Positions 9,440 to 41,144 of a stretch of 58,204 bases of DNA are shown piece by piece. The stretch spans positions 10,292 to 68,495 of the forward strand of contig MQRK01239570.1 in assembly GCA_001938485.1 (NCBI GenBank), read 5' to 3'. The notes below the pieces were generated by a model, which searched no databases, was not told where the DNA came from, and saw only the letters and a list, made by a program, of their open reading frames with translations. Source of the stretch: Girardia tigrina (Eukaryota). Made by a program: the position numbers and the translations under genes. Numbering within the stretch: position 1 is the stretch's first letter; the number at the start of each line of letters is the position of its first letter.

Positions 9440-9469
9440 GTAATTTTGCCTTTATCTTTTATATTTAAC

Positions 9470-10300: not shown

Positions 10301-10399
10301 AATAAATTAGTTTTTGGATGATTATTTATTTAAGAGGGTTATCTAAGAAGTTTCTGGTCCAAAAATGAATCAAGTAGTTTTTTTCTTAAAATTAATTTG

Positions 10400-10645: not shown

Positions 10646-10912
10646 TTTGTCTTTGTTGTTCATCGAAACATGTTTGTAAACAATAAATATATTTTTTACA
10701 CTTTTTAATTGAAATTAAATAATTGTATTTATCTACAAGGAAAAACCCTTGTTGGTAGCATTTGTGAGAAGTGGTTGCAACATCAATTTCAGAATTCATT
10801 TTAACTCGTATATCTTTACTATAAAACAATTTCCAAACAAATTTTTCAACTATTTCTTTAATTAATAATTAATCTTCCGATCTCTATTTTCAATTAATTT
10901 TTAAATAATTAC

Positions 10913-11111
10913 TCTAATTACCCTGGGTCATTTTACATGCGTAATAGCCTACGATGAGTCTTTTAGACTCTTAGTAAAATTAACACAGAAAATTTATGAA
11001 ATTCATATATTTGAAAAATTAAATTGATTAAATTAAAAAAATTAATTTTGTTGCCATTATTTAAATATAATTTCGAAATGAGTTTCGAAGACTCATCCCA
11101 GGGTAATTAGA
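10913..11111. mobile_element. MITE-like element
   Basis: Perfect 15-bp TIR TCTAATTACCCTGGG / CCCAGGGTAATTAGA, plus an inner inverted pair GATGAGTCTT / AAGACTCATC. Confidence 0.7.
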
Positions 11112-12798
11112 TGGAATATCTAATTGGTCTCTGGTAAATTTGTATTTTTTCTTAGCTCTGATTTTGTAGTTGGAATTCTGTGCTGTACTTCTACCACCAT
11201 AAATTATGTGCATCATTATTTTGCTTCTTCCTAGTGTCTATGAGGATAAATAACTTGTTACTGCATGTTTAAAATTATAAGTTTATATGTTCAAGTCCAC
11301 AAAAAAGGTTGGATAGACGAAGATGGAATAAAACTGCGGTGATTGATTTGAAAGAAACCTAGAAATAATAAAATAATAGTAAAAACTTTTTTATGAGAAT
11401 TTACGTTTTACAATATGCTTACATAAAGTGTTTATACAAAATTTAAATCAAATTATTTAAATAACTCGTTATAAACTCTCTGACTGTTTGTTGAGATTAC
11501 TTTTAGAGAAAAAAGTGTTTTATTTGAATTGGATTTTTTTCATTAAAATTTTAAACGAAATGTATATTAAACTTTTTTAATAATAAGAATAAAATTTTTA
11601 TTTTGAACATAAAAAAATTTTAAAAAATAAGTTATAAGAAAACGAAGAATTAAATGAACTATTATGACGTTAAATAAAATTTTTATTTATAATCATACAA
11701 AATTTATCATATAAACCATTTAAAGTACAAGTGTTGTATAACTATTTTTATAGATCGATGTATCTTGAAAAGATTATTATTAAAGAGTATTTTTAATGTA
11801 TATGTTGATCTGAAAAGAAGAAATATAGTTAAATAAGATTTAAAGAATTTAAATTAAACTAAAAATATTTTCATAATTAAAAAACTTTATAATTTAATTA
11901 AAAAATATTTTTGAATAAAATTAAAAGTTGAATAACATTATTAATTATCAGTCGAAAATTTCGATAAGATTCCACAAAATTTTTTTCTATGTATTTAATT
12001 TTACAATTTTTTAAATAACTCTATATATATCAGTTTGAAAAATTTGATTTGGATACGATTATCGATAATAACAAAATGTATTAAAAATAATTATATGACA
12101 TTATAAATAAATAATATAGGCATAAATTGTTAATAACATATTTTACCGAGGAAAGTAGGATTCTAGCTGAATGGAAATTTTTTCTTTTGTAATTTACTAG
12201 GAAAACAAAATCAATATTATCGACCCCATTTTTATTAAATATAAGTTTATTAAAATTATTAATTATAAATTAACATATAAAATCAATTTTAAAACCATTT
12301 TTTAATTGAAATTACGTTTACAAAATTTAACACTTAAAATTATATTTTTTAGGTTTCTTTTTCGATTTTAAAATAAAATTTCTGTGTTTTATTCTTCTTC
12401 CAGAAATTTGAAAATAATTCTTTTTTTGGATAAGTAAGGCTACTTTATGGATTTCATTTTTTCTGAGTTTTTTTCAATTGAATTATGATTGACGTGGGCT
12501 ATTTGATTAATTTTATTATAGAAACAGTAAATACTAGTAAATTTTGCATGTGAATTTAAAATTTTATTTAAATTATATTCTTTTTTTTCGCAAAAAAGTT
12601 TTTTTAAATAAAAATCGATTGTAACTTTATATCCTTATATCCATAAACTGCTAAAATATTTTAGAAGAAATCGAATGACATATAATAACATATTTGTTCT
12701 AAAAATATTTGTTTTATAATATATAACAAATTTTTAAAAATATAATATGAAAAATATTCCAAAATATTACAGGTCAGAGCATATTCTTCAATTTAAAT

Positions 12799-13252
12799 CA
12801 GTCGTTCCAAAACGTTAAAGAATTTCTTGAATGGTCGTCTCTTTAAATTTTTGAACAGTTCTTGGTCCCCCTATAAAATTTATATTTTAATCTTAAATTC
12901 ACAAAAAATAATGTTGATCATTAACCATACTTTATAAAATGTTAATTATTAACAAAGTATTTACACAAAGAATCGCTCTTGAAAATGTTTATGCATTATG
13001 TGTATATATAATATATATAAAATTAGATAGATATTAATAATTGAAAGATAAAACTCATGGGAATCGTATTCATATTTTCATAGGAAATTTCTTAAATTAC
13101 AATAAATGTAAGGAAACACAGATAAATAAGAACTTGTTATTTAAGCCAAAATTTTAAACATTCGAAAATCATAAATTTTTATTTAAAATACTGATACTAA
13201 AAATCCCATTGTGATCCGCAACAAACCATGGACCCCAGTTTGGAAATCATTA
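12799..13252. mobile_element. Non-autonomous hAT (Charlie-like) element
   Basis: Degenerate TIRs CAGTCGTTCCAAAAC / GTTTGGAAATCATTA. 8-bp TSD ATTTAAAT / ATCTAAAT. Confidence 0.6.
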
Positions 13253-14659
13253 ATCTAAATAATTTTATATAAATAATTTTTTTTATAATTAAAGAAAAAT
13301 TGTTTTGAAAGAGTTGAAATAAATTGATTTACTATCATATATATTATAATGAAAATTATATTTTTTATAAAATTATATACCCCTCAACAGGTTTTTTCAT
13401 ATGTCATTATTTAAACTGTTCCCAACGACTTGTTGTTCTTATACTGAAACAACAATTTACCGTTTGATATTTTAACAAAATAAACACAAAAGATTCGTTT
13501 ATTGATTATATTCCTATTGAATCTCTCTTTCTACTTCAATAGTGTAATAAATTAGTATATAATTTAAAAGATAAAAAGGATTTTGCAAGCAAAGTTTTTA
13601 ATAATCTGGTTGTTTTCTTTACTTTGACTTATTGACAGAAATCTATCAAAAATAGATACATACAAAATTTCTAAACAGTTTTTTTTCTTAGTTTTTTATG
13701 CATCACTACAACGTTAATTTTTAATTGTAACATGTGTTTTTTGGATAAACTGGACCATAAAACATTTTTTTTGCAGTTATTTATCAAATATTTGCTATAA
13801 TATTCAAGTTTTGACTTCATGCAGGCCATTTTAATGATTCAATATTAGGTTGATCGAAAAATAATGGCTTTTTTGAGCTTTATACTTTGTTAATCTAATT
13901 TGATATTAATATAAGTTTAAATGCATTAGTGTTAGATATTATTTGAAATCTTATGCCTAGCTGTATATTCCTATAGCCATTATTAACATATTGCTGTTAT
14001 TTTTTAGAATATTTACGGTGCTAAATNNNNNNNNNNNNNNNNNNNNNNNNNNNNNNNNNNNNNNNNNNNNNNNNNNNNNNNNNNNNNNNNNNNNNNNNNN
14101 NNNNNNNNNNNNNNNNNNNNNNNNNNNNNNNNNNNNNNNNNNNNNNNNNNNNNNNNNNNNNNNNNNNNNNNNNNNNNNNNNNNNNNNNNNNNNNNNNNNN
14201 NNNNNNNNNNNNNNNNNNNNNNNNNNNNNNNNNNNNNNNNNNNNNNNNNNNNNNNNNNNNNNNNNNNNNNNNNNNNNNNNNNNNNNNNNNNNNNNNNNNN
14301 NNNNNNNNNNNNNNNNNNNNNNNNNNNNNNNNNNNNNNNNNNNNNNNNNNNNNNNNNNNNNNNNNNNNNNNNNNNNNNNNNNNNNNNNNNNNNNNNNNNN
14401 NNNNNNNNNNNNNNNNNNNNNNNNNNNNNNNNNNNNNNNNNNNNNNNNNNNNNNNNNNNNNNNNNNNNNNNNNNNNNNNNNNNNNNNNNNNNNNNNNNNN
14501 NNNNNNNNNNNNNNNNNNNNNNNNNNNNNNNNNNNNNNNNNNNNNNNNNNNNNNNNNNNNNNNNNNNNNNNNNNNNNNNNNNNNNNNNNNNNNNNNNNNN
14601 NNNNNNNNNNNNNNNNNNNNNNNNNNNNNNNNNNNNNNNNNNNNNNNNNNNNNNNNNNN

Positions 14660-14993
14660 AAAAGCTTAATGAGTTGGGCTATGAAACCCTGCTTCATCCA
14701 CCATATTCACCAGACCTCTCGCCAACGGACTTCTACTTTTTCAGGCATTTGTACAACTTCCTACGTGAAGAAATTTTCCAAAACCAAAATGATGCTTAAA
14801 ATGCCTTCCAAGAATTCGTCGCTTCGAGAACCGATGCATTTTATGCTGATGGAATAAAACAACTTGTTTCTCGTTGGCAAAAATGTATTGATGCCAACGG
14901 TTCATACTTTGATTAATAAACTTTTGTTTCTGTGAATTTGCACGTCTTTGAAGTTTGTGTCCCAAAACCGCCATTATTTTTCGACCAACCTAA
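14660..14993 (+). mobile_element. mariner 3' end with TIR
   Basis: LGYETLLHPPYSPDLSPTDFYFF...RWQKCIDANGSYFD* followed by ...TTTTTCGACCAACCTAA-TA. The 5' part lies in the gap. Confidence 0.9.
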
Positions 14994-17900
14994 TATTATT
15001 TTTTTAATAATCTAATTATTTTTTTTAATTTAATGAACTACGTAGTACAGTTAGATATTATATTGTTTTCAGAATATTCATTGTTTAAATAGAAATTTCA
15101 CCTTTCCCACAATCATGAGTCCACCATCACCGACGTTTTCTGCAACACAAAGAACTTGATAACGCCGCGATATTCGACGTCTAAAATCATCGCACTCACG
15201 ACAATTCAAAATCTCACTATAAAAATTTTAACGTATTTCATAAAATAAAACAACGTCTGAAATTAAGATCTTTATTAATTTATTTATTCACACAAAAAAG
15301 CTAAAATTTCCTATTACATTTTTTTACCTTGTCGAGTCCTTATTATTAGTCACTTATTAGACGTACCAGGTAAAATTCAAAATATTTTAGTAACAAATCT
15401 CCAACTTCAATGAGTTTGTTTTCCAATCTCGTTTATCAATTTATTTGTAACGCGAGTAATGCCACATAAACTGTTTTCTTCTCATCTCTTTAAAGCGGAT
15501 TAAAGAACATAGACAATTAGAGAATGGTATTAATAAAATAAAAAATATAAACATGACGTTAGTATATCAGATCTGAAAATAACCGATTTTAAAATAGTGT
15601 GCAGTGATTTTAATTTAATTATTGGAGAGAATTTCTTGTGAGATATTACTGATTAAATCAACTAATGTCCAAACAAGTCTTTCATAGTCTTTCTCGAAAT
15701 GATTGAATAAGTTTCTCTGTTGATTATACCTGAAGAAAGTAGAAAGTTCACCGAAATATATAGTAAAAAATATTTAAAATGTAAATTTTAATTTACCTGA
15801 TATTATTTTTAATTTTATTTAATTACATTACAAATAATTTTAATATTTCAGTTATATTTCACACTCTTTTGTGTGTTATATATTATTGTAATGATGTTAA
15901 TGAGTTGCTTTTGAGGACCAATATAAAGCTTGACTTAAACTGAATTTTATCACGAAAGTTGCCCGTAATCCACTTATTTTATAAAAAATCCGATATCTAT
16001 TACAAGTTATAAATCATGTTTACACATAAATAATTAGGAATCGCACTGAAAAAATATTTTTCGTTTCAAATAACTTTTAAAAATAATTAAAATAAATTAT
16101 TTAAATAATATTCCTGTTTTGCCTTAATAATTAAAACATTGTCCAAATTTATTGTTTACTGTCTGTAACACAATCCTTTTTCTTATTTGTGGTTCTTTCT
16201 CTTTCATTTAATAAATAATGCAAGTTTTGAAAACAATTTTTAATGACTTGAATATACAAAATAAATTTGTATATTTTGTGACATTTATTTGTTCATATAT
16301 TTGATTGCGTGTTTATTTTTTAACTGAAGATAAATTTTAAAATCTGAACAAAACATGGTTTATATGTTTTGAGTTTTGTTATTTGCAAAAGTAAATAATT
16401 CAATAATGATTTAACTTGAATGGACTAAATAATATTCATTTGTAAATTACGTATGTTATGTTATTATTTAAAATAACAGTAATAATATTATTATAAAAAT
16501 AGTTTCAAAGATTGATATTGTTTTTTTTCGGATTCACTTTGTTTTTTTGCTGTTCCCGACGATATGTTAAGTAAATTCAAAACATTTAAAGTAGTTTTTG
16601 ACGTCGTGAGCATAACTACTCGTGAATACTTTCCAGACAATACTTCAATGCAAATTAAAAATCTATAACTGATTCTTCATTTTTGTAGATGTTTCGGTTA
16701 ATGAGAGCTCTAAAAATTTAGGTGGGGTATGTCGAGTTTTATATACCATGAAATATTTTTGAAGTATTTTGAAAAGACTATGTAATTTCGGTTTTGAGAA
16801 GTGTTTTGATGCGTCAAATCGTTTCAAATATTGTGTTAAACTTTGAATGTTGTCGAATATAATTTCAATTTGTATCACATGTCACAGTGTGATCCAGAAA
16901 AGGTTAACTTTTGTTTCGAAACAAGAAGCACAAAAATATATATTATATTTCTATTCATCAAGACTTTTTGTTTATCCAATTTTTTGAAGTTTTTTAGAAA
17001 CAGTTTAGAATTAAATAATACTTTTAATACGCGGATAGATGAGACCAGTCTGTAATAGCTGTCAGAAACTCGATATTGAGCTGCAAAATATTGTTTATGT
17101 TTAAGTATCCATAGGAAAAATAGTTTCAAGATTAATTGTCATCGTACTAAATAATGTTTAGGTGAATTATATTTGACAATTTATAGTATGTTGATGAAGT
17201 ACGTATTTTCATAGAACTTTCGAAATATTAAATTTTCGTAAGTTTTTATTTTCTTTTGTTTCTTAATTTATCAATCACTAATTTATTAAATGATATTTTA
17301 TATATATAATTAAAGTTTTATACAAATGAGATACTTTGTTATTCAAAAATTCAATAAGTTCATTTGAAATACTTCTAATATTAGAAATAATAGAAAACAT
17401 AAGCACAACTGTAAAACCAAGGAAATATAGAAGAACTTGAATACATTACTAGTCAAATAAAAATTATAATTTAAAAATTTGTTGCTTTAATTTTTCTGAG
17501 TAAATGTTTTTTACAAAATGACACAAAATTTACAAGAGTTTCTTCTAGTATTTGAAAACCATATGCAAAATATTTTGTTCAATTTTAATTGTGTTTAATG
17601 ATAATATCGAAATATTATATTAAATATAAATAAATATATAAATATTATATCGAAATAGTATATTAGTTCTCCACGATTTTAAATGAAAATAATCTTATGT
17701 TTTTTATATAAAAATATTGTTTGTGACCCATCAAGTCATTTAAATTTTTTATCCTTTGATAAGAAATATTTCATTTATATATTGTTACGAGAACTCACAC
17801 ATTTATTTAACATTTATTACAATTAAAATTTAGATCATCTTCATGGCAATCCATTAGTAGTGCGTTCAATCATATTGATCGATCTTTGTATTCTTTAAAA

Positions 17901-18599
17901 ATATTTACTACAAATGTGATTGGTTAAAATTAACATTACTATTTATCATTTAAAAATATTAATTTGATTTAATAATTTACAAATTTAAAAATAAAATTAA
18001 TAAAATCATTTAAAATTTACATCCATAATAAATTAAAAATAAATTTAAATATTAAATCTAAATTTGAATAAATTAGTTTCTTATAATAAATTTTAAAATA
18101 TTTATCAACCATCTGAGTAGGAGAGATACAACCCAAAATTATATTTTATATTTTATATTTTATATTATTAATTTAACATTTTCTAAGTTTTTATAATTAT
18201 TAAAGTATTTATTTATTTATAGTTAAATTGATATTATATCTTTTACAATTATGATAAAAATTAAATTGTACACAACGACTTTGATGAAAGAAATTATTTT
18301 TATAAGGGGTGGCAGTGTGAGAACTGAAAGATTAAGTTTTATTTTAAATTCTTGATTTTGCTGTTTTTCAATCTTTTTTCGTATTTAATTTCAAATCTTT
18401 ATTGATCACACTACATAAATTATAATATAAGACATAGTTTTATTGTTTAAAGATAGACAAGAGTAAAAAGTATTATTTGCATTTATACATTTATTTTTAT
18501 TAAAGTGGTAAAAGACGCTTATTTTGAAAAATCATAAAAAAACGGTTTTAAAAATAAATGAATATTATTATTAAAAACAAATAAACGCCATTATAAAAA

Positions 18600-18900
18600 T
18601 ATATTTTATGATAATATGTTTAGACGGTTTAACCGTCATCATCAGATCACTGATTATGTTCTTTTTTATTGCATTTATATAAGAAATGATCAATATAAGA
18701 AATCACTTACGTAAGTCTAATCGAAAACTCTTAACAAATTAGTTGAGAGTGCTGTTTGAACATTGATTTTTGGATGATATGATCTTATCAACAATGCTTC
18801 ACATGACACTCTCTCCCAATAATTCTTAAAATGCTTGCACAAAATCTTAAAATCATTTATGCTCAATATTTCAAATTTTCAAAAATCGTGTTTTATTGTT
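18600..18900 (-). mobile_element. Penelope-like element 3' end (GIY-YIG tail plus pLTR)
   Basis: DFKILCKHFKNYWERVSCEALLIRSYHPKINVQ followed by a hammerhead-like motif. Homologous to 26863-27060. Confidence 0.7.
18609..18650 (-). ncRNA. Degenerate minimal type I hammerhead ribozyme (copy A)
   Basis: GTGAT-CTGATGA-T-GACGG-TTAAA-CCGTC-TAAA-CATATT-ATCA. Stem I TGAT/ATCA and stem II GACGG/CCGTC are intact. GAAA is mutated to TAAA. Confidence 0.7.
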
Positions 18901-18930
18901 CTTTTAATAATCGATGGATGAAATTTACAA

Positions 18931-19410
18931 TGGTGTCAGAACTGCTTCGCTCGATTGCAACAAAGTCTCTACGAAACTGCCGCAATACTTCAATGCGGCG
19001 GACATGTGATTTTGACAAGTCTAGGTCGTTTTCAAATTGTCCAAGATCTCCAGCGAGACGACGAAATTCCTTAACGTCACTGCCAGCCTTCCACCAACCA
19101 TTCTCATGGAGTTTCAAGAATACTTCAATACCGAATCGGTAACACCTTTCACGGATCTCCAAAAAGCAATAATCCGGAGTCACAGACAACCATCATCAGT
19201 TCACTTTGAGGCGCTTTTCTCCGCTAACGGCATGGGCAACCGACGTCTGCCGGAGCACCTAAGGATTCTACAGTGTCATCGTGCTCAACTCGGACTGACT
19301 TCCGAGGACGATCAAATTCTACGGAACGCTTTCCCGTGGGAACTTCCGATTGATATCCAGAAACACCTCATGGATAATGGGAACCAAAACTCACTCGCGG
19401 ATGATCTACT
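18931..19410 (+). mobile_element. Gypsy-type gag remnant
   Basis: KLPQYF...FKLSKISSETTKFLNVTASLPP...PFTDLQKAII...MGNRRLPEHLR resembles the LPPFW...WFxQVE...TKF...LGDRKPSQLL gag family. A PBS-like TGGTGTCAGAA sits at 18931. Confidence 0.7.
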
Positions 19411-22349
19411 CAGGGTTAAACTACCCAACTGTATATTATTATTATTTTATTTACCTCATTTATCAAAATGAATGAAATCATTAAATTTTCAAAACGGTCA
19501 TAAGTTAATAAGTAATGAATTCAAATTGAGCTAGAAGTTTTGATAATAATTGTTCACTATTCGTAATTGACGTAAAAAAGCACTTCTTCATGTGTTCAAA
19601 TAGATTAAGGTATGATGTCAAAAATATTTGGATTAAAATATTTTTTTAAATATCTAAAATAATTTAACTTGAAAATAATAAAATATAATATAATTTGATT
19701 GTAGTTAAAGAATTATTAGGTATAAATTTTAACTAGATTTTATATTCCGATGAACTTTAAAATTTATAAAAGGAAAATGTGGAATTATAAACTATAAACT
19801 TGACCTTTTACTTGAGTAAAGTTATATTATAAAAGAAGATCCGAAGAACTGATTCATTCAAAGCTACTGTCATAAACATTATAATTTTCGATTTTTAGAA
19901 TAACTTATGGTGTATTTGCTTATCTTGAAAGTTACTTTGGTTTTAATCATAATATTATACTATTTGTTTATAATACAGAAACACTGAAACCAATAATATA
20001 TTGATAATTTTGTTCATGTATCCTTTATCATATTCTGATAGCTTCATAATTTTTCTTTGATAATACACTTAGTTTTTTCAATGAAAAAAAAGATTTATCA
20101 ATCCTTGATATTTAGATCACATAAATTTAATGACCTTCCTTTAACAAAACTCATCGCCGTCTGCAATTTACTTTTGAAACGCAATAAGAACGATTTTTTA
20201 CGAAAATTTATTATGTTAATGATAAATAGATAAAATACAAAAGATTATTGACTAATTTAGTTTGATTTGCCTGGAACAATCGTTTTCTATAAACTGGTCT
20301 ATCAAATCACAATATTTTGAATTTAAAAAATTCTTTGTTATCTTCAAATTTTAAATAACACGAATAATTAATAAGAAATATTATAACGCTAGTATGTACT
20401 GTGAGAAATGACGCCTAACCATACGTTTAAAAGGACTCAAAATGTATGTCAGTTATTAGGTGTACAAGTATGAAATGCGGATTTCAGAAAACGGATTGTG
20501 CACAATGCAAAAAGTAGGTCAATGGTTAGGCAATGGTGTCATAATATTGAGTAATTATGTAGTGTCTCATACGTAACTCGATACGTAAATTGATAAAGCG
20601 TTTTAATAATTGTTGTATTTCTGTGTTTTAGATGTCCAAATTTATGCCAAGCAGGGAGCATTCGCGGACGGTACTAATTTTTTGTTACCATCTAAAGAAA
20701 ACNNNNNNNNNNNNNNNNNNNNNNNNNNNNNNNNNNNNNNNNNNNNNNNNNNNNNNNNNNNNNNNNNNNNNNNNNNNNNNNNNNNNNNNNNNNNNNNNNN
20801 NNNNNNNNNNNNNNNNNNNNNNNNNNNNNNNNNNNNNNNNNNNNNNNNNNNNNNNNNNNNNNNNNNNNNNNNNNNNNNNNNNNNNNNNNNNNNNNNNNNN
20901 NNNNNNNNNNNNNNNNNNNNNNNNNNNNNNNNNNNNNNNNNNNNNNNNNNNNNNNNNNNNNNNNNNNNNNNNNNNNNNNNNNNNNNNNNNNNNNNNNNNN
21001 NNNNNNNNNNNNNNNNNNNNNNNNNNNNNNNNNNNNNNNNNNNNNNNNNNNNNNNNNNNNNNNNNNNNNNNNNNNNNNNNNNNNNNNNNNNNNNNNNNNN
21101 NNNNNNNNNNNNNNNNNNNNNNNNNNNNNNNNNNNNNNNNNNNNNNNNNNNNNNNNNNNNNNNNNNNNNNNNNNNNNNNNNNNNNNNNNNNNNNNNNNNN
21201 NNNNNNNNNNNNNNNNNNNNNNNNNNNNNNNNNNNNNNNNNNNNNNNNNNNNNNNNNNNNNNNNNNNNNNNNNNNNNNNNNNNNNNNNNNNNNNNNNNNN
21301 NNNNNNNNNNNNNNNNNNNNNNNNNNNNNNNNNNNNNNNNNNNNNNNNNNNNNNNNNNNNNNNNNNNNNNNNNNNNNNNNNNNNNNNNNNNNNNNNNNNN
21401 NNNNNNNNNNNNNNNNNNNNNNNNNNNNNNNNNNNNNNNNNNNNNNNNNNNNNNNNNNNNNNNCAAATGTATCATTAGTAATGGAGCATATTTTGAATAA
21501 AGCTTTTTTTATCGTTCTTTTGTTTTTAACGTATTTCTTTTCAAAATTTAATCCGCATTTCATACTTGTACACCTAATCAAATAGAGAGAACTTTCAGGC
21601 ACCTTCTTAACTTTTTTCGTTACCTTTGGAATTTTAACATTAATCTTTTAACAACTATATTTCCAATAACTTTTTAGATACTTTTCACATTTTTAAAATC
21701 GTTTTTTAATTTTTTGATAAAACAGTTTTTTTCACAATGAATAGTTTTATTCCTAAAGAATCAAATTTACAATAAATAGTTTGTACGACCCTGAAAAAAA
21801 TATATTTAATATTTTTAATATTTAAAAAAATATTTTTGTCGTTTAAAATGCTTATTTTAACTATCTAAAAACATTATTATAAATATAATTGATAATTTTA
21901 AAAAATAATTATATAATGAAATAATTTGGAAAATAATGAGGCAATAAATCATTATTTTTTCTGTAAAAGGAGTGTTTATATAAATATAATTGTCATTATT
22001 TTAAGAACTTACTCTGTCATCCATTACATTAAAATCGTTTGTCGAAATCTGTCAAAAATGTTTGATTTAACCAGGGTAAAAAATAAACCTCTAGAGGTAA
22101 TCATCAGTCAAACGAAAAAATACATTTATACTTCTATTTTCGAGAAACAAAGTCAAACTAAAGTGATTGGATTTTCCAAACTTTGATTGAACAATATTTA
22201 CTTCATTTTTTAATTATTCATTTTATATTTATATTATAATTTGAAACTAATTATAGTGTAGTTTCTATTATAATTTATAATCTAGGACAAAATGTACTAT
22301 TGAAATTGTGTAAGCAAGAATTAATAAAATTAAATCAATATTAATATTA

Positions 22350-24020
22350 CCGTATTTATCGGACTATAAACCGCGGCTTACATGAAAAAAAAGTATGAAA
22401 ATTAAAAGCAATTGGTTAGACTTATACGCGTGTGCAACTTATATAAAAATAAAAAAAACATCAATATATAAAAACAAATCCAATAATTTTATTTTAAGAT
22501 TATTCGATTTCCTCGAATCCATTAAAATCTTCATCATCTATTATTTCAAATGTTTCGAAAATGTGCAAAAATTCCGTTTGGATTTCCTGTAAATCTTTAT
22601 CCTTACTTCCAGTTTCAATTTCTGAATCATCATCACCTTCGATATTTTCATCATAAGTTTGAATCCCTGCCTTCTTAAATCCATTTTTAATACACTGTGG
22701 TGTAACATCTTCCCAGCTTTTAACAATCCAATCGCATATTTCTGAATATGTCGCTCTTTTGATTTTCCCAGTTTTGTTGTAAATGTGACAACCATTGATA
22801 ATCCAATTTTCAAAATGTATCTTTAGCTGAGATTTGAACGATTTGTTAACTGATAGATCAAGTGGTTGAAGGCTTTTAGTGAGGCCACCAGAGATCACAG
22901 CAAGTTCAGAATAATTTTTGACTTCAATTTTTAACTTCCTCAGTAAGATGACATCTAGCAGAATCGTATATTAAAAGTGATTTTGGCTTAAAAAAGGAAT
23001 CATTTCTTTTTATCCAATTTTTTTGTATCCATTTTTTATTATTTCACTATTTGACCATCCATTTTTATTGATTTCAACAATAATTCCTTTTGGAAAATTT
23101 TCTTTGGGCATTGTTAGTCTTTTAAATATCACCATTGGTTTTACATTTTTTCCATCGGCAGATACAGTTAATATAACTGTAAAATTATATTTTTCATTTC
23201 CGGTTGTTTTGATCAGAATATCTTTTTTTCCTTTTTCATCAACTGTCCTTGTATCCGGAATATCGAAACTTACAGAAACTTCATCCATATTCTCAAGATG
23301 CTTCAAGTCGATATCTCTCTTTTTATCTTTAATAAAAAGTAAAAATGATTCTTTTTTTCTTCCCAATCAGCTGGCAACGATTGTCGGACTGAAGTTACTG
23401 CTCTCATGCTTAAATTATTTCTTTTCATAAATCTTGTGCACCAACCATTCGTTCCTTTAAAATTTTCTATATTAAAATCATATTTTCCATTTTTTTCGCT
23501 GTTAATCTAATATCAATTGTAGAAACTTTAAACCATTTCTCTCTTTTCTCAATTACATACTTTTTAATTGTCTTTTCTAAATCGGGCCAAGTGCAAATCC
23601 CCCTCATTTTGCTTTCTTTTTTTTCGGCATTACGTTTAAAAGATTTTTCGATTTTCTCCAATCCCGAATGTTTTTTTATTTATATTGAATTCTCTTTCTG
23701 CTTCTCTGTTACCATGTCTTTCAGCATAAGCAATAATTTCCAATTTTCTTTCGACCGTAAACGATCTTCTTGTTTTCTCTCTTTTCTCAATTACATACTT
23801 TTTAATTGTCTTTTCTAAATCGGGCCAAGTGCAAATCCCCCTCTTTTTGCTTTCTTTTTTTTCGGCATTACGTTTAAAAGATTTTTCGATTTTCTCCAAT
23901 CCCGAATGTTTTTTTATTTATATTGAATTCTCTTTCTGCTTCTCTGTTACCATGTCTTTCAGCATAAGCAATAATTTCCAATTTTCTTTCGACCGTAAAC
24001 GATCTTCTTGTTTTCTTCAT
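22350..24020 (-). mobile_element. pogo/Tigger-like transposon, pseudogenised (Brinker DBD, CENPB-HTH, DDE_1)
   Basis: TA|CCGTATTTATCGGACTATAA TIR. MKKTRRSFTVERKLEII..., NMDEVSVSFD and GGLTKSLQPLDLSVNKSFK motifs, with frameshifts. The far TIR is uncertain (possibly near 25505). Confidence 0.9.
23538..24016. repeat. Near-perfect 238-bp tandem duplication in the pogo 5' coding region
   Basis: The ORFs at 23591 and 23829 are offset by 238 nt. I saw only one difference (CCCTCATTTT vs CCCTCTTTTT). Confidence 0.9.
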
Positions 24021-26862
24021 TTTAACGTGGAATTTAAATTCAAATTATTTTAATAAAACAAAAATAATTAAAGTCAAAATTAAAATAATATTAATTTAAA
24101 TTTAATGATTTCTTCAATAAGAAAAATTCAAAAAATATTCCTTTTCAAGCGACCCTTATTTTTCCCTTGCTTTTGTGTCAAGAGTTAATTTGACAGATTT
24201 TGAATCATATTTTCTTTTACAAAACATTGAATTTGAAAAAAGAAGACGTTCATATTTATTCTGCTATTGAGTATTCCGAAAATTTTGGATTCTAAATTTT
24301 TTCCAAAACTTCTTTAACATTTTGTTGACTTTTTTACTTATTATTTTATAATTAGCTTTTTGCTTAAGAAAAAAACGTTGGACACTATACATATTTTAGG
24401 AGTCAGTTTTTCTACAAAAGATTTTTTAATTCTTACTATTTCTCAGGTATCGCAATTTAAAAAAAACAATTGAATTTGATGTTTTATATATTTATTGATC
24501 CTTCGGTTGTGATCACATTTTTCAGTTTTTTATTATTTTATTTTTATGAACTTACTAGCCTACGGTTCCTTTGAGAAGAAACTACGCAAATTTATTCTAT
24601 CTGTGAAAAGATATTCAATTACAAAAAAATGAAATTTTCAAGTGAAGAAGTGCAGCATGCACATGACATATTTTATTCTTCATTTATCTGATCTTGGTAT
24701 GTCTTACCTAGACTCTTATGCTCAAATACATACTATACAAATGATAAAAGTAACTTAAGTCAAAAATTATTTTATGACCATATTTATAACCATATTTAAT
24801 CCCCAGGAAAAACCTTTTTTTAAATATGATAATAAATATTAACATTAATCGTTGTTTTTCTGATTTGAATTTATTTGGTCTAAACTAAAATTATGAATGT
24901 TTCAATTTCCACAAAAAAATTATGAATAGTTGGAAAGAATCGTTTGTCGATTAAATGGTCATAAAATAAATGTGCTAATTGAATACACCAGTTGCGGGTC
25001 AGGAACCTCAATATGTACATAATATTTTGATTTATTATTTTCTCTGTTTCTGATAATAACAGAAATGAAATTAAATTTATTCTTTACAAGAAATAGTTAC
25101 TGAAAATAAATATAATTAATATTAATTTAATAAATTAATATTAATGAATTAATATTAATTAAAATAAGGTAAAACCGCAAATAGACTTATGCAGTTTCAT
25201 GTGCGTAACGCTCAAAGTTTGCTGTAATCAAATATTTTTCTTGCTTTTACATGGCTTAATTTTTGAATTTTTTAATCAATGCATAATAACTCGGACTAAT
25301 ATGAAATTACGCCAAAAATAAGCAGCGTCTTATTTGCTGCACTTCATAAGAAATTGCAGACTTTTAAAATAGTATCTAAGACATGCATATAAAATATATT
25401 TATTTTAGAATAATTTTGATTTTAAAATTAAAACAGAAACTTTCAAAGAAGAAAATTCAGCTCTTTCTTCATATAGGACGGGTCTTTTTCTAGTCCAAAT
25501 ATAAAGCCTTAAATAAATGAAAATGAACATAATTCATTTATATATTTGTTGTTTTTGTCATTTAATCGACTGCATTTTTTAAATTTTAATATTTTACATA
25601 TTTTTTACTACAAATTAATTTTTAATTACTTTTATAAAATCACAAATTTAAGAATTTTAGTAATAAAATTTAAAGCTTGAAAAATCTTTCTTTTTTTAAA
25701 GGAAAATTCCTCGGATGTTGTTTCCTTTCCAATCCTTTTAAATTGCGGAATAAAACAAAAATTCAGCTTTTTACATTTTATAAATTATTTTCATCTTTAT
25801 ACGAAACTAGTAAGNNNNNNNNNNNNNNNNNNNNNNNNNNNNNNNNNNNNNNNNNNNNNNNNNNNNNNNNNNNNNNNNNNNNNNNNNNNNNNNNNNNNNN
25901 NNNNNNNNNNNNNNNNNNNNNNNNNNNNNNNNNNNNNNNNNNNNNNNNNNTATAAATCTTGTTAAATGTGAAATAAGATATAAATGAGGGTAATATTATA
26001 ACAAGATTTGTATTATTATTGAAAGATTGCTGAAAACCTTCGATCTCATTATTCAATATTCATTAATACTAAAAAATTAATTTATATAAATGTCACAATA
26101 AATAAAATGTGAGACAGATATGACAAAAAATATATTAATAAAAATGTTTGTTTAATCGTGTTTGTCTATCGAACTTGATTTTTTCGTTTTTATCAAAGGA
26201 GTTTAAAAATATATTTAGACATTGTTTTTAATTTACAAGATCTAATTTCAATTTTGTCAAAAGAATGGTTCTTCTACACTTGTTAGAGTCGGCTTGAAGA
26301 CGTTTTCCTATTTGGTAATACAATCTGTTTGAGTCGATTTTATTTGTCTTTCTATTCGAATTTTATAAAATTTATTTTTTCCAGGCATTGTATATTTCTG
26401 TTAATTTTATATAATTTTTATCAGTTTCTTAGAATTTTAAACTCATTGTAAAAAGTCTAATAATACGTGTTTTACAATACAATTATTTATTAACTTAATA
26501 GCACATGTACCTTAACTAATTAAAAATTCTAGGAATAGTTTATTTTTAGATCTACTTACTCATTTTAATATTTCATTATTAATTTATTAATATTTATTTA
26601 TTATTTTATGTGGTTTTATTTTTTATTATTATTATTAATTATTTTTTAACTATAAATTTTTCTAAAGTTACAATAAAATTAAGATTATCTCAACGACGTC
26701 TATATAAATACTCATTAAAATGTATGTAACTACCTAGTGGGTCCAATAAGTAGCCGATCTGATGCAGAAGGCATTTTCAGGAAAACTTAACTTTTTTAAC
26801 AAAAAAAGACGAACATGAATAATTATGAATAACAAAATTCATCCATTAAAAAATATATTTAT

Positions 26863-26904
26863 TGACAATATATTTCAATGGATCAATCGTCATTTTCAGG
26901 TCAC
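26863..26904 (-). ncRNA. Degenerate minimal hammerhead ribozyme (copy B)
   Basis: GTGAC-CTGAAAA-T-GACGA-TTGAT-CCATT-GAAA-TATATT-GTCA-ATAAA. Stem I TGAC/GTCA and palindromic stem III ATATAT are present. The core and stem II are mutated. Confidence 0.6.
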
Positions 26905-27746
26905 TGATCAATAATTAATTCACCAGTATATAAAAACAAAATGATGATTATTATTGCATGAAATCACGCTAATCAAAAATTCTAAATAAGGTGGTTGAGA
27001 CTGCCGATTGAACATTGATTTTAGGACAACGTGACCTTATTGATTGTTTTAAATTAATCAATTTCTTATTCTGTGCAGCAAATTTACTTTAATGTAAGTT
27101 ATTAGAATAAATGATAGCCTTGATAACACATAAAAATACAAAAATCACCACCTGCATCAAATAACATGAATCGAATTATTATCAGCGTCTTCACAATGTA
27201 GTTTCTCGATCAGTCTTCTAAGCATCTTTTTGTGAATCTTTTTTGTGAATATCTTTGTTATTCTCATCCGGATTTGAGTTGACCATTAATCATTATCCTA
27301 ATGCACTCAATTATTTTAGAAGATATATGAAAATATTCAATTCATTGAGAAGAAAAGAAATGGATATCTGTTTCCTGGAAACATGCATTGAGAAGATAAT
27401 TCCAAGTTTTATTTTCAAATCAAAGCTCCATGAATGCCTACATAGTGAAGATATCAGAATGATCCACAAAAGGATGCTTAGAAGACCGATCGACAAAGAA
27501 AAAAGAGCGAGAAACGATATTGTAAAGGCGCTGACAATAATTCAAATCGCGCTAAATGATGTAGGTGGGCATCTTTGTTTTCATTTGTGTGTTATCATTG
27601 CTATTATTAATTCTAATAAATTAAATCAATGTTCAATCGTCAGTCTCAACCAGCTGTTTTAGAATTTTTGATTAGCATGATTTCATGCAATCGATTACAA
27701 AATCATATTTTTTTTATTTATATACAGGTGAATTAATTATTGATCA

Positions 27747-27780
27747 GTGACCTGATGATAACGGTTGATCCGTCAAAATA
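27747..27780 (+). ncRNA. Hammerhead ribozyme copy C, 5' part (3' part displaced to ~29152-29160 by the MULE)
   Basis: GTGAC-CTGATGA-T-AACGG-TTGAT-CCGTC-AAAA-TA, then the MULE, then TATTGTAAATA. Confidence 0.65.
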
Positions 27781-29142
27781 GGTGAGGCGACTTTACCGCA
27801 GCGACTTTACCGCGGATTTTTTCAGAAAAAAATATTAAAAATTTATAATATTTATATTAAATAGTTAAATAAATTCAATTTTCTTAAAATTTTTAATTAA
27901 GATATTTTTTTCCATTATTACCGAATAATACTTTATTAAAATATAATATTTATAATAAAATGTTCCATTTACGTTAATATACCTTTAAAAATATACCTTA
28001 AAATATTATAAATTTCTAAAAAAAATTCTCTCATTTTTTTCAGCATGAATCTTCAATTCTTTACTTCAAAATCTGGAAATCCGATTGTTGTGTATGCAGG
28101 CTATTCTTATTGCTTGGATTAAAGGCTGTTGTTTTTCATCGGAACCAATCAATTTGGAAAAAATAAGAAACATCAAATCTTCCAGGTCTCTATTCAAACA
28201 ATGATGAAATTAGAACCATTCTGAAATCAATAATAGCTATAGCGTTTGTTCCTGTGATGTTATCACTGCCTTTTTGGTTTTACTTGATCTTTCTATTGAT
28301 TATCCAGAACTCGATGATGTCTTTGCATATTTTGAGGAAACATATATTGGCCGTGCTCGTGGAGAACGAGGTTTACGTCCTCGATATTCAATTCAGTGTT
28401 GGAATGTATATGACCGCGTTATTTCTCATCTACCACTCACAAACAATGCAATAGAAAATTGGCATCGTGCGTTTCAAAATTCTATCGCTTGCAATCACCC
28501 AACTGTTAATAGTTTGATAAATCAATTTCGTACTGAACAAGATTTTGTTGAACTAATTCTGCAGCGCATTAAAATTCTCTTTAGAATTGAAGACTTCCCA
28601 CAATTCTCGTCGCAAATTTATGCCAAAGTAAGTGAGAGGATTGAACGTATCGTTGAGCAATACATTAATTTACCAATATTGGATTATCTTAGAGGCGTTG
28701 CTCATAATTTAAACTTTTTGGATTAAAGTATATATTTACTATTCCATTATTTTAATATATCAGTTTAATNNNNNNNNNNNNNNNNNNNNNNNNNNNNNNN
28801 NNNTTTTTTGGTGTGTTATTCATTTGTTCTAGAATGTTATTTGAATTTTTTTTAATTAGGAATTTACTAATTTTTCGTATGTTCTTTGTTTATTTTTTAT
28901 ATTAAAAAGAATAATTAAATGTCGATCTAAAATTTTCTATCCATTTATGTTTTAAAATTAAACCCGTGCATGATTCATTGTTTTAACATAACATAATTAA
29001 AAAATTTTATTCATATTTTAGATGATATTGTTCACTTATTGACAATTTTGTTGTAAATTTTCCGAGGTGAAGTCGCCCGCTGTAAAGTCGCCCGCGGTAA
29101 AGACGTCCGCTGTAAAGACGTCCGCGGTAAAGTCGGCGTACC
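27781..29142 (+). mobile_element. Internally deleted MULE transposon
   Basis: TIRs built from 15-bp CGACTTTACCGCGG-type repeats. 9-bp TSD GTCAAAATA / ATCAAAATA. Motifs GCCFH, YFEETYIG, WNVYDR and TNNAIENWHRAF...HPT. Confidence 0.9.
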
Positions 29143-29159
29143 ATCAAAATATATTGTAA

Positions 29160-29180
29160 ATATATATATATATATATATT

Positions 29181-29227
<47 letters not shown>
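29160..29227. repeat. (TA)n microsatellite
   Basis: Seen directly. Similar tracts at 41087-41140 and 54936-54997 adjoin gaps. Confidence 0.95.
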
Positions 29228-29231
<4 letters not shown>

Positions 29232-29820
29232 GTTGAGGAATAAGTTCCAGCCGTTTTTTGAATTTTTAATCAATTTTTAATCAATTTAATATTTAAATCA
29301 AATTTTTTGATGTAATACTATATGTTATTTGAAAGCTATTGTTTTGCTCTAAAAAAGGGTATATTTTGTTTATTTATTCAGATTAATTTTTGTCGATTTT
29401 TAGACCATTGAAATGGAATGTCAAGTCGACAAAAATTAGCATTTCCGACACCATCTATTGTTTGTGTATAATCGAGGCGCCAAAGCCGCAGACGCTGTCC
29501 GATAGCTTTGTGCTATATACGGAGAAGATGCTATAGCTGATTGGTTCGCAAAATTTAAAATTGGCAATTTTGACCTCAAGGATGCACCTCGTTCAGGAAG
29601 ACCAAATGCATTCGATGAAGAGCGTTTGAAGAAACTTTTGCATAAAGACGCGCGTCAAACCACTCGAGATTTGGCGGAACAAATGGATTGTGATCAAAAA
29701 ACTGTCGTGAACCACCTGAAATCAATGGGAAAAGTTCAAAAAATGGGAGCTTGGGTCCAACATCTTTTGACCGAAAACAACAAAAACCAGTGATCCACAA
29801 TTTCGGCGAGTTTGCTTACT
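29228..29820 (+). mobile_element. mariner 5' half
   Basis: TA|TTAGGTTGAGGAATAAGTTCC TIR. HFRHHLLF...FDLKDAPRSGRP...GAWVQHLL motifs. Confidence 0.9.
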
Positions 29821-32800
29821 TATTTTAATATAAATAAATATAATTTGGTAAATAAATATAATTATCAATTGAAATATTAAGAAATAATCAGTTTTTAAAT
29901 ACTTATAATTTTTAATGGTATTTAAATTGTTTAAATGTTTCCATTTATATTTTTTTATCTTCATAATAAATTTATATATGAAATATGAAGTTAATAACAA
30001 AACCTGTAGAAACAAATAAAATGGCTTAGATAACTTATGTTTTATCATTTAAAAAAAGTCCTTAAATAAAAGGCAGTTTCAAATTTAAATTGAAAAGAAA
30101 TAAAACATTCCAATTGCATATGAATCACATGAACACAGTAAGCCTGTTTTGAAGTAAAATTATATATACAATTTAGTAACACAATCACAAATTCCTTTTA
30201 CTAATACATTTTAAAAGGAACATTTGATTTTACTTAAAATGATATTTAGTTGTATTAGAAGCAAATTAAAATGTTCTTACAGTAATCTTCTATGAAAAAA
30301 CTCTTCCTTAAAGAAAATTACAATATTTATATGGGACTATAGATGATGGAAGGAGAATAAACAAAAGTGGAATTTCCCGCTAGTGTAACAGAACTTTTGG
30401 GAAAACCTAATATTATATCATTTGATTATTTATATTAAGTCTATTGGAATTCAAGTTACATAAAAAGTAATTAGAAATTTAAAAGAAAATAATTCTCTAA
30501 CAATTCATTAAAAGGAACAACAATGTATTGTTAATTTTTATATTAAAAATAAATTAATAATTGTTTATTTATTGTTTAAATTTTTTGACGAATTGTTTTG
30601 TCAATTACACAAAGTTTACAGAACTTCATTGGAATTGCTGAAAATAATTGTTGTTTGTCTAAATTGACATTTGTTTATCTCATAATGCTTCCTCACATGA
30701 ATAATTTTGTGGGATTTGTTAGGAAGTTTGTGGGAGTTGTTAGCTATTTATAAAATTAAGATATAAATGTTAGTTAAGCATGAGAAAAAAATTAAAAACA
30801 ATAGTAATCAATCTCACTTCAATAGGAAACGAAAATATCAATAAAAATTGATATCTCAATTTTCAGAAACTGATAAAAATTATTAATTTCGTGTTAAAGT
30901 TTCAAACCAGCAAAAGAAAAATTGAAATCTGTACTTTCTTTTGGTAAAAGTTTCAAAAATAAACAAAAATTTCAAAAAAAACAAATTGAATTAAACAAAA
31001 ATAATTTTGTGAATTTGTAAATCAAAGCAAAACTGAATGCATTTTGGCAAAAAAGATTTTATTGTATTTTTGAGATATTTAAATATGTTAGATATTTAAG
31101 TTTCTATTTTTGTTTAACATTGTTAACTTTAGTAATAAACTTTACTGGAAACTTTAAGTTGATGTACTTAAACTAAACTGGAAACTTAAAGTTATGTCTT
31201 TAACTTTGAAAATATTTAATTTGGTTAGCTATGTATAATGATAATAAAAATAATAATAATAATTATTATTATTAATATCATAATTATTACTTTTATTATT
31301 ATAGTTGGTCGTAAAAATACGAATGGTTGATTGAACCTAGACTTACTATGAATAAAAGTAATTAAATTAATAATTGTTACAATTTTATTTAAAAAAATTA
31401 TAAATTAAACATTAAATAACAATTTACAATTTAAAGTAATCGAAAAGATAGCGCCGCTACGGAGACTTTTTATTTTAAATGATCACATGCAAAAATATGT
31501 TTATGTTAAAAAGAAAAAAAATTATTGTTTAAATATGTAATAAATAAGTATTAAGTTCGTATAATTTTTTAAAAATAAATGTTGTATTTGCGAATTTAAA
31601 GTTTTTGGATCGAAACATACATAAAAAAAGCAGTTGTTACCTATTCTAACTTAAATACGTAAAATCATTTATCATCAAACCAGGGATGGCAGAAACCGAA
31701 TTATTGCTGACGAGCACGGAATATATACTACGAAAATCCTTATCAAGATTCAGACCTTCATTTGAAGAGGATCAATGTTGTTTGCTATGAAAGAACTGGA
31801 GGAAATATGTACATCAAACCATACTAATGGAAATAAAACATGGTACAATGGATAGTGAATAAGAAACGGACCTCGTTAGGGTCAAAAAGATTTATTGTAG
31901 AATTAAACTCTGTAGATTGAATTAGAAGGATCTGAAGAATTATTGTAGGGAATTAGAATTCTTTCAGTCCAAAAACAGCGATCGAACCCGGAATTTCGGT
32001 ACAGATTTGACCCCACCAGGACGCTGTCCACGGAATTTTGTAATGTAAGAATTATTGATTTTCTTGTTAAAATCAAAAAATCGTCCACCCATCATTTTTT
32101 CATAAAAAATATATGAAAATTTGGTACTGTAAACAAAAACTGAGAAACTTTCGAAAAGTGAAAGAATTCTCATGAAGTTTATCTGAAAGTTTCTTTTTAA
32201 GTCCATCAAAATTAATAAATAAAAAAGAAAAAGTTACTTTAGTGTTTGAATTTTATCGACATTGTAAAATTAAAATAAAAGATAATAACTGAAGGGTTAT
32301 TGTAATATTCAAATGTTATTTGAAGTAATATTTTTTAAGTAACCCTAATTTAATTTGACAACAGAATATTCTAGAGAAAAATCCTTAAAAGTTAAAAAAT
32401 AAAATAAATCGATTGGTGATTGTAAGTTCATATCTGATAAAGTTATTACCATTTATGTTATTATTATTTATAATTATGGTTATAATTATAAAGGATCAAT
32501 TGAGAGAAGCAATGGTTCTCAATTGATTAAGCAAAGTAATATTTCCTGATGAAATGGGAAATGATCCCCGATTGAATAACTGGTGAAATGGCTTTCAATA
32601 AATCCTTAGGATGGATAATTAAACCTGGAGTCTTATTTGAGGAGTCGTCTCTTGACAAATCAATAAAATGGGCAACAATGTAACTGATTACATGAAACAA
32701 TGGCTCTCGATAAATACTTAAGAAGGCGAACAATAAAAAAGAACTATCCTCTTGAATCAATCGAAAAAGTTTAGATAAGATCTTAGAGAATAAAATGAAA

Positions 32801-32899
32801 GGTTTTTCAGTCGATGAAATCAAAATGTTAATAGATTGTAAAAATGAAAGTTTATTGAAAATTATGAGTATGATCAACGAAGAAAAAAAATTAAACAGG

Positions 32900-34800
32900 T
32901 TTCAATATTGAAAACGTTGACATGCTGAATGGGCCAAAAATCAGTTACCGGTATTCATTAGAATGTTCTCCGAGAAATTTAAATCAGTAGAAGTCAATTT
33001 TAAGAGGACAATACAGGACATTAGATCGAAAATTAAAGGTAAATGGGGTATTGCTGCAAAAATGTCAAACACCCCTTTTTGGAAAGACAAGGAGTTGGGT
33101 ATTCTAAAAAAATATGATTAGTATGAACAACTACATGATGTGCATCAACAAATAATCACAACGGTCCGACAATGGAATAGGAAAGAAGTAGACAAATTGG
33201 TATATGAATTGCAATGACTGAAAATGGCGGACAAACAAATTCAGGCATTAATGAAAGGGAAATATAACGTTGCATCCTAGGTAAAAATTATAACCCAGAT
33301 CGATACGAAAGCAGGATGACAATTATAAATTTCGGATTTGAAAATCGAGAAAAGCTTCAAATACCAATATTATCTGGAAATATTGTCTTATACCGGTTGG
33401 AAAGCAATATTTCAATCATCTTTACAGTATTTGAAAACCAGTAAAACAAATAATTTACTTACTAGCGAAAGAATGAAGCTAAATAAGCCTAAATTCATTT
33501 TTGAGAGTTATGTATTTAGTGACGAAGCTTACAAATCCGCAATCAGATCATCGGAGAAAATATATTGGTCATAGAAAAAGATTACATCGCATTTAAAGAT
33601 GATTACATGTAAAAGACGAGCCAAAAATAGTGTTCTGAAAGTCAATCCACAAAAGTGAATATTAGAGAAAGAGAAAAGATATTCGAAAGCTGCACAAAGG
33701 CATTTTTTAAAAGCAGGGACGTTGTTAAAAATGAAAAAGGCTGTTCGTTAAAAAAAGATTGAAAATTTAGAGACGCTGGTACATGCATAATGACAGAGAA
33801 AATAGTCGTTAGTTTGAAAAAGCGAAGAGGAAAATTTTTATATGAGATAAACTGTATATATGAACACTGATTTATTTAACAAAATAATAAAATTAAAAGT
33901 CATATGGAAAAGGGAATCATGAAGCATAGGAAGTTTCGATAACTGCTAACTTCGGGGATGAGAAAACATGATAAAAGTGATATGGTCACAATGAAAATCA
34001 TTCCGATTGAAATATGGAAAGGAAAATAATTATGAGAGTGATAACTCCTTGATGATAGTAGTAACACAAGTTACATTGTTCAAGATATCGTAAAACAGCT
34101 AAGGGTGGTGGACAGAAAATAAACAGTATAATTCAATGATTAATGAAACTGAGAAAGTATTGCGAACAGAGATGGTATCGTTATGATTAAAGGAATCGAG
34201 GTACAAGAGACTTTAAATTATCAGCCATTGGATATTCTAAGATAATTATAGGTAATGGAAAGTAAATTATAGAAAAAGTGAAAAAGTATGAAACAGTTAC
34301 GAGTTATCAAGATAAGAAATACCAAGATGATGTGGCAATGTTTAATTTTGTGTAGATTATTTGAATGTCCCTAGTTCATTGAAAGAAAGAATTGGTGATG
34401 AATCTGATCCGATTGCTAGAATAATTATTTTGGGATGGAGTGTTGTTGGAAATGTAAATCGACAGATGAAAGACAATTTGTTCACCAAATTGGAAGTATC
34501 AGAACCGATTGATGATGAGACGATAAAGAGAAAGATATAAGTATCGAAAGTTGTTTAACGAAGTTTGATCAACAAATCATAGAAGACACAGAGAGAGGTA
34601 TGAAACATTATGGTGGTAGGTCTGAAGTTGACACACCTTTGAATGAGAAAAAAGAATTTGGTATGATTCTCGATCGACTGCGTATAAGAAATGAAATATC
34701 TGCATTATAAATTCAGAATGACATAAGAATTTTAAGAGAATTATACAGTAATATCCAAAAGGATCAGAAGAAAAAACCATATATCAAAGAAATTTATTTA
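32900..34800 (+). mobile_element. Highly decayed BEL/Pao gag-protease region
   Basis: SGNILSYTGWKAIFQS (gag-like), LLDDSSNTSYI (protease-like) and PIARIIILGWSVVG, with many stops. Boundaries are approximate. Confidence 0.6.

Positions 34801-41086: not shown

Positions 41087-41144
<58 letters not shown>

Follow-up and report, generated by a model that had tools for sequence, protein, structure and literature searches.

A 58,204-nucleotide (nt) stretch of Girardia tigrina DNA (contig MQRK01239570.1, positions 10,292 to 68,495; hereafter the window, numbered from its first letter) contains three hammerhead ribozyme motifs, two on the reverse strand and one on the forward strand, within what appears to be one intron of a host gene. 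Judged from their sequence and surroundings, the motifs are almost certainly minimal type I hammerheads located in the pseudo-long terminal repeats (pseudo-LTRs) of two Penelope/Poseidon-type retroelement families. The explanation that accounts best for the locus as a whole, and very probably the right one, is that decayed minimal type I hammerheads lie here in the end repeats of two Penelope families, the window copies being predicted inactive. The feature is an ordinary one, adding new members to a kind of hammerhead described in 2014 (PMC4209133), and the three copies are unimportant in themselves, as dead relics of it. Why Penelope-like elements (PLEs) retain a barely active hammerhead is an unsettled question in the literature (PMC8557442, PMC11167929). 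The published PLE hammerheads show weak dimer cleavage (PMC4209133) or cleave only when the element protein is added (PMC11167929), and dimer cleavage of minimal hammerheads is summarised in PMC6765202. Here we report a computational analysis of the window copies and of their relatives throughout the genome.

Abundance, families and host element

The first-pass annotation had placed hammerheads at three sites, and all three motifs were located there in the window sequence. C3 and H17 lie at 18645 and 18613 (−) in copy 1 and at 26899 and 26867 (−) in copy 2, and C3 lies at 27752 (+) in copy 3. The interval first given for copy 3, 27747 to 27780 (+), does hold the motif but ends too early, as the ribozyme continues at 29152 behind a 1.36-kb transposon. 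Every copy is mutated in its core, as had been noted: copy 1 at G12, copy 2 at G8, and copy 3 at G10.1 and G12, both of which became A, also abolishing its A9–U–G start codon. G12 has a catalytic role in the hammerhead core. The family-level core, CUGANGA … GAAA … UH, is present in the genome-wide patterns, and each window copy deviates from it at G8 or G12. The helix II of copy 2 fails to form in the computed ensemble, and all three copies, which are 89–93% identical to their closest sampled relatives, are predicted to be inactive. Rfam, searched with the window at a cutoff of E ≤ 5, returned no hammerheads and two chance matches; the Rfam models miss the minimal form found here.

The annotation had suggested a genome-wide hammerhead search. 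Run as a core-pattern search of 1.43 Gb in 255,254 contigs, it gave matches far above the controls: 24,233 exact matches to a generic 33-nt core (8 in the control), 6,868 with shorter helix II spacings (56 in the control) and 4,313 to the exact core first proposed (none in a reversed control). The core patterns require no base pairing and skip mutated copies, and the assembly contains near-duplicate contigs such as C23035 and C23036, so the total of about 31,000 is an order of magnitude rather than a census. The hammerhead motif is very abundant in this genome, and its core occurs far beyond chance. Published counts for related motifs are about 2,000 and 1,300 in Schistosoma, 4,000 in the coelacanth and 9,000 in Xenopus (PMC4209133), obtained with different search methods and compared here with an assembly that holds duplicated contigs. 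A coral has also been reported to hold more than 6,000 type I motifs, and the axolotl 126,247 canonical ones (PMC7229834); given the axolotl figure, the present count is high but no hammerhead record.

Clustering of 121 distinct matches from sampled loci yielded 11 clusters, and later searches added the short-helix families K, L and P; at least ten families are represented. Copy 1 belongs to family A, with CUGAUGA and a GAU/AUC helix I, and copies 2 and 3 belong to family C, the TGAC/GTC family, in which N7 is A in all 32 non-self matches. The single consensus initially drawn from the three copies therefore does not hold up: it is a hybrid that joins the CUGAUGA of family A to the TGAC/GTC of family C and, with the two families mixed, is unsuitable for assay as written. 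These families may already be included in the supplementary alignment of PMC4209133. In family P (L169, L193–L221), the hammerheads are older and variable, helix I is weak, the endonuclease lies at a greater distance and the host element is less clear.

The link to Penelope elements, at first an assumption, is borne out in families A, B and C, where a sense-strand PLE protein match lies directly upstream of the motif. Among matches in these families with at least 200 nt of upstream DNA, 25 of 28 (B), 16 of 24 (C) and 4 of 6 (A) have a protein match whose end lies no more than 130 nt before the motif; the corresponding fractions elsewhere are 2/5 (D), 2/2 (E), 1/4 (F), 1/1 (G), 1/7 (K), 1/26 (P) and 0/9 (L), the best matches in L and P ending 200–290 nt upstream. 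In each window copy, the stop codon of a GIY-YIG C terminus lies about 70 nt before C3. At the family B locus L111, a single frame of 448 amino acids carries a reverse transcriptase (RT) domain (PF00078, RVT_1; E = 1.3e-8) followed by a C-terminal GIY-YIG domain (PF01541; E = 3.2e-6). This frame has 1,906 database relatives, and families A and C match it at 50–65%. RT matches also occur at family C loci (L147), and PF01541 lies directly upstream of the hammerhead at L013. Young copies are linked to RT/GIY-YIG frames rather than apart from them, and no full-length intact PLE open reading frame (ORF) was recovered among the sampled loci. The CX2-5CxxC linker between the RT and the endonuclease is absent from L111, P0005 and P0015. 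As this linker is present in Neptune and reduced in Nematis (PMC8557442), its absence fits Penelope/Poseidon by the criterion of that paper.

Most genomic ends extend beyond the cut site into the ORF frame, which suggests, as for the element in PMC11167929, that inserted cDNA usually comes from uncleaved RNA. Inverted, head-to-head pairs resembling copies 2 and 3 occur at L110, L121–L124 and L146. We also observed that N-terminal fragments of family C (L133–L137, L147, L150, L151, L155–L158 and window position 27260) often break 25–80 nt past the start codon; these breakpoints coincide with tail ends, many lie beside inverted element DNA, and they may mark sites at which reverse transcription starts or is resolved. 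In L032–L036, and in the window at 27041–27043 and 27623–27632, the N-terminal region of the ORF is joined straight to the 3′ pseudo-LTR, in some cases through an AATTAGG microhomology and at more than one breakpoint, forming recurrent internally deleted derivatives.

Pairing across families

Covariation was examined in one natural representative from each of eight families, with the representatives and the structure chosen by us. Bases were paired in 84 of the 88 cells (95.5%), compared with 25–56% in slid controls, and the covariation score of 0.506 was reached in none of 500 shuffles. Six of the eleven pairs are altered on both sides, three in helix I, two in helix II and one in the helix III palindrome. 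Helix I is only 2–4 base pairs (bp) long: 2 bp in all 32 family B matches, and 3 bp in 16 of 28 perfect-core matches in family C and 8 of 12 in family A. Its two inner pairs form in all eight families, with double changes, and the third forms in four. The compensatory change in stem I (TGAC/GTCA versus TGAT/ATCA) that had been pointed out in the window is part of this true cross-family covariation; taken alone, it is a single C–G/U–A swap between two families, and the outer pair is inconstant. Helix II, 3–6 bp here as against 7–8 bp in Schistosoma (PMC4209133), is fully paired across the eight families, with double changes in two of its five pairs, and its pair probability in the computed monomer ensemble is about 1.0.

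Among 100 listed matches to the generic pattern, scored by eye, the extra base after A9 is U in 95. G10.1 and C11.1 were fixed in the search pattern, so that this pair is not an independent test. Of the same 100 matches, 91 have a perfectly palindromic 6-nt helix III, although the pattern left four of its six letters free, in agreement with the short palindromic stem III first described. The palindromes are AUAUAU, AUUAAU and ACAUGU, with ACUAGU added by further searches; one is common to families A, C, D and I, and another to B, E, F and G. A family-specific dimer code was considered and rejected: at least ten families share just four main palindromes, and five of six positions match in two cross-pairs.

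Promoter, start codon and cleavage site

Upstream of the ribozyme lies a promoter-like signal at a fixed distance. Counting the 113 matches with enough upstream DNA, together with families K, L and P, we found TATA(A/T)A 31–38 nt before C3 in 82 of the 113; three equally wide control windows gave 7, 2 and 1. The box is present in families A–G, in 10 of 11 family K matches, and in 8 of 9 family L matches at −38/−40. An initiator-like sequence, T(C/T)AG(T/C), albeit a loose pattern, places its A 3–6 nt before C3 and 27–32 nt from the TATA box in families A, B, C, D, G and L, and in copy 1 the initiator-like TCAGT abuts helix I. The canonical TATA–initiator spacing served as the yardstick for this distance. 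Just 5′ of the TATA box, about 45–60 nt upstream of C3, families A–G carry a near-palindromic motif like TGATTACATAATCA (L097, L098, L102; near 27690 for copy 3), which we take to resemble a C/EBP- or PAR-type bZIP site; in family A, a perfect CTTACGTAAG adjoins the stop codon.

The ribozyme overlaps the predicted start codon of its element, and in families B and C it does so in frame. Together, A9, G10.1 and the extra U between them form an AUG in 48 of 52 family B, 27 of 31 family C and 16 of 16 family A matches, and in all matches of families F (6), D (6), G (3) and E (2). The frame that begins there contains a shared N-terminal motif and stays open for a median of 33 (B), 15 (C) and 30 (A) codons, compared with 0–10 for the remaining frames; at L112 it runs for 159 codons, including a short N run, into the N-terminal domain. 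Among 30 family C loci that contain the N terminus, a ribozyme lies upstream at 13, and the other 17 break off by truncation or inversion before reaching it; in nine of the 13, the ribozyme is in frame at exactly 78 nt. For family A, the proposed overlap follows solely from the N-terminal motif held in common with B and C. A downstream AAATGGCG was rejected as the family A start codon, as its frame stops within a few codons and the core AUG frame holds the motif shared with B and C. In family P, the start codon is perhaps an AUG in the palindrome. Every resolved case has an AUG 5′ of the cut.

An overlap between hammerhead and start codon has already been published for the anole element PAc (PMC11167929). 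In contrast to PAc, the predicted start codon shifts among the families here, from A9 in A–G to loop or helix II in K and L and perhaps helix III in P, always 5′ of the cut. Our searches, which covered few subscription journals, found no literature tying a TATA-defined start to a hammerhead. A likeness exists in the pseudo-LTR of Adineta vaga Penelope (Arkhipova et al. 2013, PMC3846280), where a putative TATA box likewise precedes an initiator-like sequence, there by 20 bp, and the opening codons of the ORF; the available passages of that paper do not connect promoter and hammerhead.

The ribozyme probably forms the whole 5′ leader of the element's RNA, as it overlaps the predicted start codon and sits 31–38 nt behind a TATA box. 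In a tandem copy of the parent elements, RNA polymerase II would likely initiate a few bases before the catalytic core, at helix I, and translation of the ORF would begin at the AUG inside the ribozyme. Helix II would form at once, with helix I marginal and the monomer unable to close helix III. Pairing of two palindromes, probably aided by the element's own protein, would then complete the core, and a cut after H17 would remove both cap and AUG, withdrawing the RNA from translation; insertion would use uncleaved RNA. Young copies may well cleave, and we lean towards thinking that they do. The full proposal, in which the ribozyme is the entire leader of the PLE mRNA and its cleavage strips cap and start codon, is a tentative one that we would not expect to hold in every part.

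Several points weigh against such a removable leader. Families B and C supply most of the TATA counts, which are non-independent, and in family P the box lies at −31 to −38 in just 2 of 24 matches. Four of the 13 family C loci with a ribozyme are one base short and thus out of frame (three look identical), one of the nine in-frame loci lacks the AUG, and codon 18 of family C is another in-frame AUG, located behind the cut. The frame that starts at the A9 AUG spans 2–6 codons in families K and L, and the ORF-like frame there begins at a later AUG in loop or helix II. As these families retain the extra U without using this AUG, the idea that the U is kept purely as part of a start codon was rejected as a general rule. 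On the structural side, the number of double-changed pairs alone is equalled in 42 of 500 shuffles, and the shuffle control ignores relatedness; in the monomer, helix I is weak (pair probability 0.09–0.32 in A, B, D and G, and 0.74 in C), and duplexes of AU-only palindromes reach merely −0.2 to −0.8 kcal/mol. Ribozyme mutants of the anole element still inserted in vitro, and RNA sequencing in the anole gave no reads starting or ending at the cut site (PMC11167929). The RNA contigs from the 21 runs available, mostly of uncertain RNA origin, cannot show where transcripts start or end. In four runs whose contigs were compared with a family B end, they indicate presence only, and X1, X6 and X7 may be DNA; in run X5, 97% of the compared material continues unlike the family B stretch. 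None of the runs was used as evidence of expression or habitat.

That the hammerheads cut long read-through or tandem precursors into unit-length, possibly circularised templates, with the overlap of promoter and AUG incidental to a compact end repeat, is a real possibility, if short of an even one. This model was proposed by Cervera and De la Pena (PMC4209133), and it gains from the presence of the motif at both ends of tandem copies, as in the two same-strand copies in L146, and from the palindromic helix III, which suits pairing of two copies within one RNA. It sits less well with most genomic ends running beyond the cut, and a promoter-like signal at a fixed distance would make a 5′ release cut needless.

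It is unlikely that the (C/T)AG beside helix I is instead the 3′ splice site of an intron in the 5′ untranslated region, with transcription from an upstream, internal, TATA-less promoter. Drosophila virilis Penelope, whose pseudo-LTR hammerhead likewise combines a helix I of 2 bp with a palindromic helix III, has such an internal TATA-less promoter and a 75-bp intron whose 3′ end maps to helix I (PMC2377424; PMC4209133), in contrast to the TATA box at fixed spacing here. Six families (A, B, C, D, G and L) do have a (C/T)AG no more than 6 nt from C3, and a GTAAGT occurs about 65 nt upstream in family A. In families E, F and K, however, no such YAG is present, although the TATA spacing is retained in E and K, and among 14 listed family B joints none is a GT..AG joint at helix I, a weak point as the runs may be DNA.

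Equally improbable, in our view, is that the motif is retained for its structure, which would bind protein or control translation with helix II over the start codon, and that it cleaves rarely or never in the cell. In its favour, metazoan minimal hammerheads have low activity in vitro (PMC4209133), Naiad elements proliferate without hammerheads (PMC8557442), helix II is the sole stable element of the monomer, and the cleavage triplets include AUU and GUU. Against this, at least ten families conserve the catalytic letters and a palindromic helix III despite changes in helix letters and encoded residues, and C3–G8 rescue has been shown for the anole element (PMC11167929).

Genomic setting and significance

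The features of the window are listed in the table below.

Features in the window, with positions in window coordinates
Feature	Position	Strand	Evidence
Inferred GT-AG intron (33,389 nt) of a TENT5/FAM46-type nucleotidyltransferase gene, holding all three copies	9440..42828	+	PF07984 and in-frame GT/AG join
5′-truncated family A end (355 nt): last GIY-YIG codons, pseudo-LTR, copy 1, tail	18519..18873	−	88% over 357 nt to L006
Hammerhead copy 1: G12 to U, helix III palindrome broken (ACAUAU)	18608..18650	−	Sequence
Putative TATA box of copy 1, TATATAAA, 36 nt before C3	18674..18681	−	Sequence; spacing shared across families
Family C pseudo-LTR: endonuclease C terminus, 3′ spacer, copy 2, tail	26828..27041	−	83–89% to family C loci
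Hammerhead copy 2: G8 to A; helix II with two mismatches and a wobble	26863..26903	−	Sequence
Family C ORF N-terminal fragment fused to the copy 2 pseudo-LTR (internal deletion)	27043..27241	−	79% to L144, L146, L154
Family C ORF N-terminal fragment (from about codon 27) joined to the copy 3 pseudo-LTR	27260..27632	+	85% to L144, L146, L137; protein search
Family C pseudo-LTR with the 5′ part of copy 3 (C3 at 27752)	27623..27780	+	Sequence; family C comparison
DNA transposon in helix III of copy 3 (1,362 bp), with terminal inverted repeats	27781..29142	.	Sequence
Remainder of copy 3: helix III end, H17, 3′ strand of helix I	29152..29158	+	Sequence

The upstream DNA of L006, the relative of the copy 1 end, matches the PLE ORF. 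Copies 2 and 3 stand head-to-head, each pseudo-LTR joined to an N-terminal piece of the ORF with the RT deleted. Inspection by eye revealed no target-site duplication flanking copy 1 or the pair. The transposon in copy 3 is flanked by a 9-bp target duplication (27772–27780 and 29143–29151; 8 of 9 identical). The G12 change of copy 3 is present in both copies of this duplication, which makes the change older than the insertion. The transposon's ORF at 28214–28726 matched no Pfam family; from its terminal inverted repeats and target duplication, we take the transposon to be MULE-like.

The frames flanking the putative intron match PF07984 positions 2–66 (window 9124–9439, +) and 69–320 (42829–43811, +). 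The intron is packed with transposon debris; copies 1 and 2 are antisense to the TENT5 gene and copy 3 is sense. With two copies antisense and the sense copy split, no effect on host RNA is expected. Other remnants in the window include a DDE_1 (pogo-like) transposase at 22500–24053 (−), beside a 238-bp tandem duplication (23536–24016, 99.6%) that may be an assembly duplication; mariner-like transposase fragments, recognised by eye, at 13957–14857, 20610–21585 and 47840–48142, two of which flank N stretches; a weak DUF7041 match at 19025–19468; and LTR retrotransposon fragments at 55850–57411 (+) with RNase H-like and integrase Pfam matches. That the copies are non-autonomous tandem retrozymes or were co-opted for TENT5 pre-mRNA processing, to which their intronic position and the derivation of animal retrozymes from PLE pseudo-LTRs (bioRxiv 10.64898/2026.07.22.740005) might point, can practically be dismissed: repeat scans of the window gave no tandem array of the motif, the copies are dispersed or inverted within PLE coding remnants rather than forming the non-coding 170–400-nt tandem repeats with a canonical type I hammerhead of non-LTR retrozymes, two are antisense and the sense one is transposon-split, and all are core-changed and 7–11% diverged from their closest sampled relatives.

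The metazoan PLE minimal hammerheads of PMC4209133 share with those of Girardia tigrina the type I topology, the short helix I, the extra base between positions 9 and 10.1 and the G10.1–C11.1 pair. Further common traits are the palindromic helix III, the pseudo-LTR location, many covarying families per genome, a predominance of single truncated copies, and opposite-strand pairs 100–700 bp apart. The anole Poseidon element PAc (Frangieh et al. 2024, PMC11167929) likewise has genomic tails into the ORF, together with a GIY-YIG domain at the C terminus; protein-assisted cleavage was assayed for PAc, whereas the Girardia tigrina hammerheads are known from sequence alone. Adineta vaga Penelope (PMC3846280) shares a pseudo-LTR of about 200 bp, head-to-head inverted repeats and an optional tail, and differs in its low copy number.

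The genome-wide set, with roughly 31,000 matches in at least ten families, amounts to a helpful natural experiment, in which pairing within the ribozyme persists even though the encoded residues differ. One testable geometry emerges from them: TATA box, start site, ribozyme, start codon and cut. If the ribozyme is indeed a removable leader, its removal would be a copy-number-sensing or autoregulatory off-switch on translation, and this would provide a concrete function for PLE hammerheads.

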